Shown here piece after piece: positions 1 through 6,357 of a stretch of DNA of 10,267 nucleotides. The stretch covers positions 1 to 10,267 of the IMG/VR virus record IMGVR_UViG_2660238499_000007. One strand, written 5' to 3'. Origin of the DNA: a virus (lineage: Duplodnaviria; Heunggongvirae; Uroviricota; Caudoviricetes). Each line of letters starts with the position of its first letter. The first letter of the stretch is position 1. A program made the position numbers and the translations under genes. Under the pieces are notes generated by a model. The model was not told the DNA's origin, searched no databases, and saw only the letters and a program-made list of their open reading frames with translations.

Positions 1-204
1 TCACAAACTCACAAACCAGCAATGAGCCATCACAGGGGGGGGTAGCGACGAGTCGATGACCAGCAGCGCATCTTTCATAATGCCGAAGCGATAGATTGTC
101 TCTGACGCTTTCATGTAGTAGGTAGCATACGGTTTGTGGATGAATCTCTCATCAAGCGACAGGCGGTTCTCAACGTAATCAGCAGCCGGGCTCGGTAATC
201 CCAT
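1..204 (-). CDS. UmuD'-like (LexA/peptidase S24 family) N-terminal fragment; probably frameshifted or a pseudogene at the window edge
   Basis: 67-aa ORF MGLPSPAADYVENRLSLDERFIHKPYATYYMKAS...LLVIDSS aligns with E. coli UmuD from about residue 25 (GFPSPAADYVEQRIDLNQLL..ATYFVKAS..DLLIVDSA), i.e. it starts where UmuD is cleaved to UmuD'. GGAGG lies 6-8 nt upstream of ATG(204) and a LexA box sits just beyond. The frame terminates right after a G8 run (35-42); one alternative frame stays open to position 1. Confidence 0.55.
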   Translation of the reverse strand: MGLPSPAADYVENRLSLDERFIHKPYATYYMKASETIYRFGIMKDALLVIDSSLPPPVMAHCWFVSL

Positions 205-221
205 AACTCACCTCCGATAGT

Positions 222-241
222 TACTGTATATGAACACAGCA
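222..241. promoter_or_regulatory. LexA (SOS) box-like palindrome upstream of the umuD'-like ORF
   Basis: TACTGTATATGAACACAGCA has CTG-N10-CAG with an AT-rich centre, close to the consensus TACTGTATATATATACAGTA; it sits in the promoter position of the minus-strand ORF. Confidence 0.55.
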
Positions 242-404
242 TTGTCGATCGGTGGTGTCGATCAATAGAGATTTGAGTGATAAACTCAGATAATTACGGA
301 AACCTCTGATTGCTCAGCGTTTAGTTACACGTGCTATCTGTTATGCAAGTAGGGGTATTATCTTTTATTAATGCACACTAACTTTGTGCATATACGGAAA
401 TTAT

Positions 405-1588: not shown

Positions 1589-3835
1589 TTAGTAAGAGAT
1601 AGGTATTTCTCCTGTAGAGAAGTTGCCTGCTGCACCTTCCCTGCTGCATAAAGCGAACTTCTTATCAACCACATCCCTTGAGTCTGTAGCAATAATTTCA
1701 TGGCAAATATTATTTGCAGATCTGTGCACGAATGTATTTACAACAGGCTTACTGGACGATGTTCCTTTGGCCCTCGTTCCGTCTATAAGGCAATCAGACA
1801 CCGACATAAGTCCTGAAACTAGGTTATTGCTTGAATCCCAATCTATCAACGACTTATCAAAATACACGCTTCCTAACATATAGGTTGTCCCTCCGGAGTA
1901 ACCAACAAACCTGCGCAGCACTCCACCTTCCAGCCTAATATAGCTGCGAGACATTCCAGACGTAAAGTTCATGAAAGTTATGTCCATATTGCTCTCAAGA
2001 CCATAAAGGCATGATGCATACTCATTCAGGTATCCAATATAAGCTAAAACCTTACAACCAATTGATTTCGCAGGTGTCAGTTTGACTATTGATATTTCTC
2101 TGGAAGTTGAATCATGGTAAGAGATGGCCCACTCAAATCTTGCATTTTTACCATTAAAGGTGCTTCCGGAGAAATCTATAACGCCAGGCATAATGAAATC
2201 ACGAATAATGCTATTTTGTGTCTTAAAATTATTTTTAAATGAAACAATGTTAAGTGTGACTGCGTCAGGCCAGTAGATATTTGTAGATATAATTACATTT
2301 TTTGGCAGATTTAATGCTCTTGGCTGAACAGGGCTACCAGTGGAAACAACATTATCACACCTGCATGTGAAGAGATCTACAAGCCCAGTTTTGTCCGATG
2401 ATATTCTTACCGAACCCCCTTTGACAATAAAATCCCCCTTATGCTCTCCATAGTCAGTGCGAATCCCAAAGGGACCAATATCTGAGTTTATAATCTGCGT
2501 TGATTCATCAAAAGCGCCAGTACCAAAAGCCGCGCCATTAATTATCCTGCAATTGTCTATCAAAACCTTAGACGATCCATAATGAAGATTGAAGCTATCA
2601 ACAGTGCAATCTCTTACCACAGTGTCACGGCTATAATTACCATCAATAGAACGCCACCCTTTCCCAACAACAGTGCTAAAAAAAGAATGCTTCAGAGTAA
2701 ACTCTAGAGTCAATGTGTAGCGAGATTCAGAATCAGGTTGTGTCATCCCCGATGAGCACAAATACCAATTAACACCGTATGTATTACTACTACCAAAAAT
2801 TGCAGAGTTGATGGGTATTACGCCTAAGGTATTATCATAATTAACCCTTACATCAACCATAGACCTTTTGATATCAACAGCCGTGCCAGTAAACGTCCCT
2901 GATAACTTAGGCAATACAGTGACAGTCCTTCGCACAGGCAGCTTATATAAAGTACAGATAAGTGAAGAGTTGTATGTATTCTTAAATGTATACGCTAAAT
3001 CACTTCCTTTGGTTAGTAGGTTAACTTCACCTTTGTATTTTGGCGTGAAAGTGCTGCCAAGCAATCGGTACAAGTCAATTTCAGTACCAGACATCTTAAC
3101 TAAGGAATTATCCCATCCAGTGGTTGACTCTGTAAATGTTAGCGCGGAAGTTAGCTCGTTTAATGGATATGCTGATGGTGTAAAATCTTTAATGTATGTA
3201 GATGCGTCTCTCTCATCAGCATAAACAATCTTACCGCCAGCCAGGTTGAACGTGCAATTGCTGAGATCAAAATCTCCGTATAACGTTGTCTCTTTGTCGA
3301 TAGTGAAAGTCAGTGGCATAGTTGAGTAGATTTTCACTGGAGTTCCTTTAAACTCAGCAAAAACAGAATTCAACTGATCGCTATTTCTTTCACCATCAGC
3401 AGCAGCTATATCGTATACAGAAAGCCTGACCTCTAACCCCCCTATTATTTTGTAACCGTCTGGCGAACTAATTTCATCCATGAACCTTTGCTCAAACTGG
3501 TCAGGGTCATACTTCAGCACATTCGGAAAATAGAACTGCTGAGAACCGTACGCATCGTATACAGCCATAGAATGGCCTTGCACAGTTACGAATTTGGCAA
3601 TCTGTCCGTTATATACAGGATACCCGCCAGCGTTAATGATGATTGGCTGTGCAACAGGAACGTGAGAACCGTCTTCGTTTTCCACATAAACCTGAATCTG
3701 GTTTTCAGGATTTACCGGGTCAGTGCCAATTTTACCGATATAAATTTTGCCATTGGCTACGGCTTTAAAAGAACGAGCCATAGTGAAGAGTTGCGAAGGC
3801 ATGCTTACCACAACATTTGCGGTGATATCTGACAT
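1589..3835 (-). CDS. P22-type tailspike protein (gp9 family) with conserved head-binding N-terminal domain and divergent receptor-binding/enzymatic body
   Basis: 748 aa from ATG at 3835 (CTGGAGCAATGAAATG, GGAG RBS); the track ORF starts 16 codons upstream. The first ~120 aa ([56 protein letters not shown]...[17 protein letters not shown]...[10 protein letters not shown]) match the P22 gp9 head-binding domain as recalled; the rest is Ser/Thr/Gly/Asn-rich as in beta-helix tailspikes but not recognisably P22, Sf6 or HK620. Confidence 0.9.
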
Positions 3836-3956
3836 TTCATTGCTCCAGACGAATGATATGATGCAACCATGATGTGATTGCATACCGAAATGGTACTATT
3901 GAGTATTTATCCAGTAGGTTACGATGCCATTCCACCCAACTGGTGAGGCATCAAGG
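3836..3956. promoter_or_regulatory. Divergent intergenic control region between tailspike and mnt; possible Mnt operator
   Basis: 121-bp spacer between divergent starts. It contains TCCACCCAACTGGTGAGG (about 3931-3948), an imperfect inverted repeat (CACC...GGTG) reminiscent of the P22 Omnt core (GGTCCACGGTGGACC). Promoter hexamers not assigned with confidence. Confidence 0.3.
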
Positions 3957-4217
3957 ATGTACAGCAAATACGACGAGGCGCAGTTTCACTTGAGACTTCC
4001 GCATGAACTTCACGCGAAAATTAAACAGCGTGCGAAGATGAATAACAGGTCGCTGAACTCAGAGATAATTGCAGCGATTGAAGAATCATTGACTAAACAA
4101 AGCTCTGCATCAGTTTACATTGACGATGCAGAGCGTATGGCAGAACAACAATCCGATATGGTAAAGAAAATTGTCTTTGATACGCTCAAAGAGCTATATA
4201 AAAAAGACAGCAGCTAA
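3957..4217 (+). CDS. mnt: Mnt-like ribbon-helix-helix repressor (Arc/Mnt family)
   Basis: 86 aa from ATG 3957 (AGGA RBS; the track ORF begins at an upstream ATG 3924). FHLRLPHELHAKIKQRAKMNNRSLNSEII..IEESL and the C-terminal ERMAEQQSDMVKKIVFDTLKELYKK closely resemble P22 Mnt (FNFRMPMEVREKLKFRAEANGRSMNSELLQIV...ERLADEQSELVKKMVFDTLKDLYKK) as recalled. Confidence 0.8.
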   Translation: MYSKYDEAQFHLRLPHELHAKIKQRAKMNNRSLNSEIIAAIEESLTKQSSASVYIDDAERMAEQQSDMVKKIVFDTLKELYKKDSS

Positions 4218-4224
4218 CTATCAG

Positions 4225-4728
4225 TTACGGAGGATTCCCGATAGGGGGTAAGGGGGTATTTGTATTTATTGTCTTTTGTATATTGTCTTTTGTGTTTGAC
4301 TGATTCGGTAAATTGCTTTTTACCGATTTGGTGAAGGTTTGTTTTACCGAATTGGTAAATGTTTTACCGAATCCGTTAACTTTCGTTTTCCACTCGGAAA
4401 TGTTTGTATTCATACCAACTTGACGCCCCACCTGAATGAGAACTCCCATTCTGATAAGCTCGTTTTTGGCGGTAGAGCATTTGGTTGGTGCCATGCCAGT
4501 GAGTTCAGCGAACTGTTCGTTTCCGATCCAATCTATTTTTTTGTTGTAACCGTATGTCTTGCGCCACACAGCCATAACAATCAGTAACTGATGTAGAGTA
4601 AGTCCAGAAAGCATGGCGGCTTCTAACAGTGTGTTTGCAGTCCGAGTGTAGCCATCTTCGAGTTCTGCCACGCGATGCTCCACGACCTCCAGTTGAGGCC
4701 TGTAATCAGCTAACTTAACGACGCCCAT
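4225..4728 (-). CDS. Lambda-O-like replication initiator, N-terminal iteron-binding domain only (truncated, C-terminal domain absent)
   Basis: 167 aa; residues 20-110 (AELEDGYTRTANTLLEA...LIVMAVWRKTYGYNKKIDWIGNEQFAELTGMAPTKCSTAKNELIRMGVLIQ...GMNTNISEW) parallel lambda O N-terminus (ADLDDGYARLSNMLLEA...LAILRKTYGWNKPMDRITDSQLSEITKLPVKRCNEAKLELVRMNIIKQ...GPNKNISEW). AGGAG RBS before ATG 4728. The ORF runs through the iteron and AT-rich region and stops at 4225, 7 bp from the mnt stop; lambda O is about 299 aa. Confidence 0.75.
   Translation of the reverse strand: MGVVKLADYRPQLEVVEHRVAELEDGYTRTANTLLEAAMLSGLTLHQLLIVMAVWRKTYGYNKKIDWIGNEQFAELTGMAPTKCSTAKNELIRMGVLIQVGRQVGMNTNISEWKTKVNGFGKTFTNSVKQTFTKSVKSNLPNQSNTKDNIQKTINTNTPLPPIGNPP
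4300..4381. repeat. ori-type iterons (four ~18-bp repeats) followed by AT-rich tract, embedded in the O-like gene
   Basis: Four copies of TTTACCGAAT-NN-GGTAAA-like repeats at about 22-bp spacing (ATTCGGTAAATTG; TTTACCGATTTGGTGAA; TTTACCGAATTGGTAAA, a perfect palindrome; TTTACCGAATCCGTTAA), mirrored in the protein as KTFTNSVKQTFTKSVK. An AT-rich AAAGACAATA-repeat stretch lies immediately 3' on the coding strand (about 4255-4300), matching lambda ori organisation. Confidence 0.7.

Positions 4729-5640: not shown

Positions 5641-6357
<717 letters not shown>

Follow-up and report, generated by a model that had tools for sequence, protein, structure and literature searches.

Genes of the window and their prophage setting

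The stretch of DNA analysed here as a whole, to which we refer as the window, is 10,267 nucleotides long. The host is E. coli, with 99.9% identity to this species in the dacD flank. The window belongs to a defective (cryptic), deleted remnant of a P22-like/lambdoid prophage that lies between sbcB and dacD, at a site which measures 209 bp when empty. The left end of the window carries, on the minus strand, the beginning of a umuD-like gene behind a LexA box, which is the subject of this study. Next to it lies the gene for an acyltransferase-3 family membrane protein of 382 aa (405-1553), placed between the tailspike gene and the umuD-like gene where P22-like phages carry their O-antigen modification genes, and then the tailspike gene itself (1589-3835), whose product has the P22 head-binding domain. 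For the receptor-binding part of the tailspike and the acyltransferase gene, no close match was found in 5,426 complete E. coli genomes.

An Mnt/Arc-type repressor gene (3924-4217) directly abuts a truncated replication-O gene (4225-4728), whose 167 aa represent the N-terminal domain only. Positions 4217-4228 are the junction of a deletion, in which the remainder of the replication region was lost together with the lysis genes and every head and tail gene; two related loci (L007 and L011) retain P22-type injection and tail genes at this position. In the order of genes, the replication-O gene is followed by CII, a CI-type repressor (5644-6357) and a KilA-N protein. That the prophage is defective can also be seen from RecT, of which a fragment is left (7741-8076; 73 of the 198 profile positions matched), and from the integrase, which is divided between two frames (9433-10121).

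Regulatory region and translation start

The LexA (SOS) box of the umuD-like gene occupies positions 222-241 on the minus strand (plus strand TACTGTATATGAACACAGCA, gene strand TGCTGTGTTCATATACAGTA). Its CTGT-N8-ACAG core, at 224-239, is the sole match in the 10.3-kb window, where 0.15 matches are expected; at least one such core was present in 26 of 200 shuffles. The 20-mer of the box and the ATG of the gene are separated by 17 nt. The box of the intact relatives is equally far from their ATG, and the box of the window differs from it by two substitutions, both A to G, at gene-strand positions 2 and 7; in the P1 record, a LexA binding site is annotated 19 nt before the ATG of humD. The canonical LexA box described in the first-pass annotation is present, in other words, and its position is conserved in P1 and other relatives. 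Both the motif and its conserved position suggest that the copy in the window would be under LexA control.

The same annotation had noted a good ribosome-binding site and a start at the N-terminus of UmuD', and both were found. The ribosome-binding site GGAGGTGA (215-208, minus strand), as read from the sequence, lies 3 bases before the ATG and is invariant in the relatives. The ATG (204-202, minus strand) aligns with Cys24/Gly25 of UmuD, and the alignment with UmuD' runs from Gly25. A mis-called start, with the full 24 N-terminal residues of UmuD lying upstream, was considered and excluded, because a TAA stands in frame two codons before the ATG and rules out a longer N-terminus.

On its upstream side, the LexA box adjoins two direct repeats GATCGAC(A) (242-265, minus strand; GTCGATC), each with a Dam GATC site, and a possible -35 sequence (TTGATC) lies inside this element. 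It is kept in the E. coli, Enterobacter and BTP1 copies of the gene, while the DNA further upstream diverges, and it is absent from P1 humD. The repeats may represent a promoter -35 or sites for a regulator, and the element is to be regarded as a putative promoter; a sigma-70 scan gave no promoter on the gene strand at the scan threshold.

Assignment to the HumD family

Codons 1-54 of the gene (MGLPSPAADY...VIDSSL; 43-204, minus strand) are in frame and match the NCBIfam equivalog model NF051876, HumD. The actual 67-aa product scored 81 bits on this model over profile positions 1-55, as expected, since less than half of the HumD protein is present. The N-terminal 67 residues corrected for the poly-C tract described below scored 102 bits (positions 1-65), and the ORF repaired by removal of two C's and of an 8-bp duplication, which encodes 126 aa, scored 183 bits over positions 1-129, the curated cutoff being 120 bits. 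The UmuD model NF007621 was not reached by the reconstruction (75.8 bits as compared to a cutoff of 110).

DNA searches retrieved E. coli prophage homologues labelled 'HumD family translesion DNA polymerase' or 'S24 family peptidase', together with 'UmuD' genes in Enterobacter phages and in P22-like Salmonella phages, for example BTP1. When the intact 129-aa protein of an Enterobacter phage was used in tblastn, full-length homologues were obtained in P1 and P7 (humD in both), N15 (gp26), phiKO2 (gp23), HK639 and HK140. The intact homologues (P1 humD and those of N15, phiKO2, HK639, HK140 and Enterobacter phages) are 127-129 aa long. A large protein collection contains 338 homologous clusters, mostly of 127-129 aa and many of them named HumD family, which come from Enterobacter, Escherichia, Citrobacter, Klebsiella and Salmonella. 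Bacteriophage P1 HumD is reportedly the subject of McLenigan et al. 1999 (J Bacteriol 181:7005). An ORF of about 125-130 codons is usual in this family, and the copy in the window stops at 67; because its ORF is interrupted, it is filed as a HumD-family pseudogene and not as a functional member. We assign a probability of about 0.88 to the reading that positions 1-241 are the regulatory region and the 5' half of a HumD-family pseudogene, that is, of an ordinary and already known gene.

The features of the family were read from an alignment of 120 representatives with UmuD. Met occupies the column of UmuD Cys24 in all 120 and the protein starts with MGFPSP in 112, while a one-residue gap before the position of the nucleophile is universal. 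The position of UmuD Ser60, in the stretch that corresponds to codons 34-38 of the gene in the window, is Thr in 89 representatives, Ser in 29, Ile in one and Ala in one, and that of UmuD Lys97 is Lys in 113. These features change the interpretation of the motif KASETIYRFG, which had been taken for damage by local indels at the Ser nucleophile. That explanation was rejected: the intact, 91%-identical relatives read KASETIYRCG, KA-SETIY occurs in intact members and the gap of one residue with respect to UmuD is found family-wide. The motif is a normal HumD motif, with Thr at the place of UmuD Ser60. A Ser-Lys dyad of the UmuD type (GDSM ... VK) was not found in the copy in the window, which has Thr at Ser60 and in which the Lys codon lies beyond both frameshifts.

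As a separate observation, the family retains a Thr/Ser-Lys pair (Thr or Ser in 118 of 120) although its members have no tail of their own to cleave. Whether this pair is kept for structure or for cleavage of another substrate is perhaps worth a specialist's look.

No umuC-type gene lies downstream of humD in any of the related loci examined. In L007 and L011 the next gene is an integrase, while in L005 and others a second humD remnant comes next and dacD after it. The missing umuC partner, which had been proposed as a ground for refuting the original reading, does not count against it, HumD genes normally standing alone.

The second humD-like remnant is a 3' one (…ADASLSHGDGSLLVC… and …VVITYIINDARYGEFDDYPLK, with a stop at its end), seen in the sbcB-dacD context at 10440-10700 of L005, about 240-500 bp past the left edge of the window, and it shares 96.6% identity with the end of Stx phage 2851. 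In the annotation of HK140, attP overlaps the 3' end of a UmuD-like gene. It thus seems that phages of the sbcB-dacD site have humD beside attP and that fragments of it stay behind.

Lesions of the reading frame

To call lesions, the DNA was aligned with that of P0001 and P0002 (127 aa, from loci L030 and L033), the closest intact relatives, which are 91% identical; DNA beyond the edge of the window was taken from related loci that carry the exact 67-aa product. The ORF in the window reads MGLPSPAADYVENRLSLDERFIHKPYATYYMKASETIYRFGIMKDALLVIDSSL, enters a run of eight C's and terminates at a TGA (3-1), with 67 codons in all, which agrees with the G8 run and early stop reported at first. The poly-C tract (35-42, minus strand; G8 on the plus strand) represents the first frameshift, being two bases longer than the corresponding site of the intact relatives. 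This site reads CTACCCCCCCCTGT in the lineage of the window, as compared to CTA AAT CCC TGT or CTA AAC CCT TGC in the intact relatives, where a homopolymer is missing.

The second frameshift, about 12 codons downstream of the tract, is a tandem 8-bp duplication, TTTGTGAG followed by TTTGTGA(G) (1-15, minus strand), which is an insertion with respect to three relatives and is cut by the edge of the window. Its copies lie at window positions 8-15 and 0-7, and the TGA that ends the 67-codon ORF falls in the second of them. A third lesion, a 3-bp deletion, is located further downstream, outside the window. The second reading frame (PPCDGSLLVCEFV) had been described as staying open; it does so up to the edge of the window, but stops at a TAG three codons past it.

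The effect of the tract on the product was simulated for both states of the duplication. In its presence, tracts from C5 to C13 gave products of 57-70 aa only, whereas in its absence C6, C9 and C12 gave 126-128 aa.

Distribution of the allele and length of the poly-C tract

A near-identical copy was not found in the E. coli complete-genome collection, where the best match was 87% identical; for this reason, the population data come from encoding contigs and cluster members. In the assembly collection, 119 blocks contain the exact 67-aa product, which was found in isolate genomes and gut metagenomes and in two chromosomal contexts. In the argW/intS context, the P22-like prophage appears to be complete and has intS and yfdC as neighbours (L007 and L011); the sbcB-dacD context holds a deleted remnant as in the window, next to dacD and sbmC (L005, L006 and others).

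When exact products were looked up, the duplication combined with C8 was found on 65 contigs, with C6 on 14 and with C7 on 11. The C9 product was found on a single contig, near-identical 69-aa variants being present on 19 more, and the C10 product on 4, with a near-identical 58-aa variant on 8 more. No product of C11 or C12 with the duplication was found by exact look-up in the protein collection, nor any product of a duplication-free allele among its 15 billion proteins. Exact-pattern scans for a tract of variable length gave no match in genome_contigs or viral_contigs and two C8 copies in metagenome_contigs. A sample of loci independent of the tract, and in this respect unbiased, was retrieved via the neighbouring acyltransferase protein; it comprised C8 in 3 loci, C9 in 3 and C10 in 4, with more than one tract length within each chromosomal context and with the duplication in 10 of 10. 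Overall, the duplication was present in 22 of the 22 related loci examined.

These data bear on two explanations in which the gene would be functional. According to the first, cells would carry an intact gene, and the G8/C8 frameshift in the window would be due to a homopolymer error of sequencing or assembly. The tract does vary between otherwise identical assemblies (C8, C9 and C10 in the unbiased sample, C6 to C10 overall) as homopolymer miscalls would, and differences between assemblies could in part be sequencing or assembly artefacts. However, the C8 product occurs on 65 contigs from independent sources and, owing to the duplication in all 22 loci, any tract length still ends at 70 aa or less; the 15-billion-protein collection, moreover, holds no duplication-free product. 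As the whole explanation, an error was rejected on account of this second, invariant lesion downstream of the tract, and we judge it highly improbable that the gene is intact.

The second explanation, also put forward in the first-pass annotation, is that the tract acts as a phase-variation (contingency) switch of a functional HumD via slipped-strand mispairing. A tract of this kind is long enough to slip, its length varies among strains and also within each of the two chromosomal contexts, and lengths that are in frame (C6 and C9) do occur. These in-frame tracts, however, give only 68-69 aa, since the duplication creates a TAG 12 codons further on, and the tract is not a conserved design of the family, as the intact relatives have CTA AAT CCC TGT there and no homopolymer. 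With no tract length from C5 to C13 restoring a full-length product in the presence of the duplication and no duplication-free allele found, the proposal of a homopolymer-switched gene fails, and we give it hardly any credence. The variation of the tract is the outcome of slippage and/or homopolymer miscalls, and every state of it is truncated.

Selection and decay

Substitutions were assigned by parsimony, the outgroup being the copy of E. coli LCP17S3. The lineage of the window has 10 nonsynonymous and 11 synonymous unique substitutions, as compared to 3 and 12 in the two intact relatives together; these are small numbers, and in absolute terms the apparent excess of replacements is slight. 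Replacements at otherwise conserved positions include F3L, S26Y, C40F, P81L and P125Q. The overall dN/dS of the copy in the window with respect to the intact relatives is 0.08, which indicates that inactivation is recent relative to the divergence from them; with respect to P1, dN/dS has no value, because synonymous sites are saturated. Of the interpretations offered at first, that of a decaying pseudogene is the one that is borne out, by the two additional bases in the C-run, the 8-bp duplication, the 3-bp deletion and the replacements at conserved residues. Judged from its sequence, the copy in the window has probably lost its function, and its tract would be neutral. This allele is not expected to stand in for UmuD' in SOS mutagenesis with the UmuC of the host.

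The LexA core, the ribosome-binding site and the start codon are intact, so that a short product may still be made. This leads to a third explanation, according to which the truncated N-terminal HumD peptide of 57-70 aa, under LexA control, has a function of its own, for example interference with UmuD'/UmuC or RecA. It would agree with the preservation of these three elements, with the first 54 codons being in frame in every allele seen and with the frequency of the allele in E. coli samples; being widespread, the allele could have been retained and need not have spread by hitch-hiking with the prophage. Against this, more than half of the S24 fold is missing, including the conserved Lys and the C-terminal strands, and conserved N-terminal residues have been replaced (F3L, S26Y and C40F). 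Furthermore, the C-terminal tail differs with each tract length, which argues against selection on the product, and the BTP1 and E. coli LCP17S3 copies are broken elsewhere, as simple decay predicts. A function of the peptide is therefore very unlikely, if slightly less so than an intact or a switched gene, and the peptide is presumed to be inactive. Even more speculative is a variant in which the 5' half with its hypervariable tract (C6 to C10) would be a contingency locus, producing alternative short peptides by which the assembly of Pol V or the interactions of RecA would be modulated in the SOS response; we regard it as very doubtful.

Comparison with P1 HumD, UmuD and other prophage copies

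Returning to the HumD pseudogene as the preferred reading, the closest known system is HumD of P1. The HumD of P1 is described as a shorter form of UmuD that is activated from the outset (PMC7092418), and the note on humD in the P1 record states that it 'functionally complements E. coli UmuD''. The gene in the window shares with it a start directly at the N-terminus of UmuD' (MGFPSPAADY in P1), a LexA box just upstream, the lack of a umuC partner, a family-specific deletion of one residue before the position of the nucleophile and, in the downstream part, the C-terminal extension INDARxGEFDDCPVM; the reconstructed protein is 60% identical to P1 HumD. Unlike P1 humD, the copy in the window is a pseudogene, in which two insertions shift the frame and 3 bp are deleted, and it has Thr instead of Ser at the position of UmuD Ser60, Thr being the majority state of the family (89 of 120). 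The surroundings differ as well: P1 humD lies beside phd/doc in a plasmid prophage, whereas the copy in the window lies in a P22-like prophage beside the tailspike and O-antigen acyltransferase genes.

With E. coli UmuD/UmuD' (PDB 1UMU, 1AY9, 1I4V and 8GMT) and the plasmid proteins MucA, RumA and ImpA there is a homologous S24-type fold. For the intact relative from Enterobacter phage MII_001, the match to UmuD' has an E value of 4.5e-18 over chain residues 1-113. By analogy, HumD and the UmuD/MucA/RumA/ImpA proteins would also have in common regulation through a LexA box and the role of accessory subunit for a Y-family polymerase. The gene in the window differs from UmuD in that the 24-residue N-terminal tail and the Cys-Gly cleavage site are both missing and the GDSM nucleophile motif is replaced (SETI). 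In contrast to UmuD, MucA and RumA, no gene of the umuC/mucB/rumB type follows, and the HumD family has an extra C-terminal extension of about 10 residues with respect to UmuD.

The copies of Salmonella phage BTP1 and of E. coli LCP17S3 (argW) are humD pseudogenes like that of the window. They likewise lie between tailspike/O-antigen-modification genes and an integrase or att site, and their LexA box and ribosome-binding site match those of the copy in the window. In BTP1 (L003, 3780-4195), an in-frame stop at codon 29 is accompanied by a frameshift; the LCP17S3 copy (L001, 3812-4196) has a 1-bp insertion and is described as 'frameshifted' in RefSeq. These lesions are independent and at other sites, the expanded poly-C tract and the 8-bp duplication being confined to the lineage of the window. 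Independent lesions at different sites in the three copies indicate a recurrent decay of humD in P22-like prophages.

Proposed origin and significance

We propose that the ancestral gene would have encoded a LexA-controlled, pre-activated analogue of UmuD' acting with the UmuC of the host, as shown for P1 HumD and extended here by orthology. HumD proteins, of about 129 aa, are synthesised directly in the UmuD' form, and their genes follow a LexA box; since UmuD Cys24 is replaced by Met, they do not depend on RecA-stimulated self-cleavage. The earlier suggestion of a naturally pre-activated UmuD' variant thus stands for the HumD family, as represented by phage P1 HumD, but not for the broken copy in the window. 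This copy, at the tailspike/O-antigen-acyltransferase end of a P22-like prophage, would owe its inactivation to three indels or more. It may still be transcribed on SOS induction, but nothing longer than a peptide of about 57-70 aa would then be made, in which the C-terminal half, the conserved Lys and much the greater part of the beta-sheet core would be missing. The poly-C tract would now drift in length without consequence, either by slippage or as sequencing noise.

The observation that started this analysis was correct and its explanation is ordinary: the gene is a decayed member of an already known family and no new kind of switch. In itself, the copy in the window matters little, as a case of correct annotation of a HumD pseudogene in a cryptic E. 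coli prophage. More generally, a 'UmuD starting at the cleavage site' is nothing peculiar to this locus; it represents a recognised, widespread family of phage genes, and HumD genes have been lost repeatedly in P22-like prophages, as seen in the window, BTP1 and E. coli LCP17S3.
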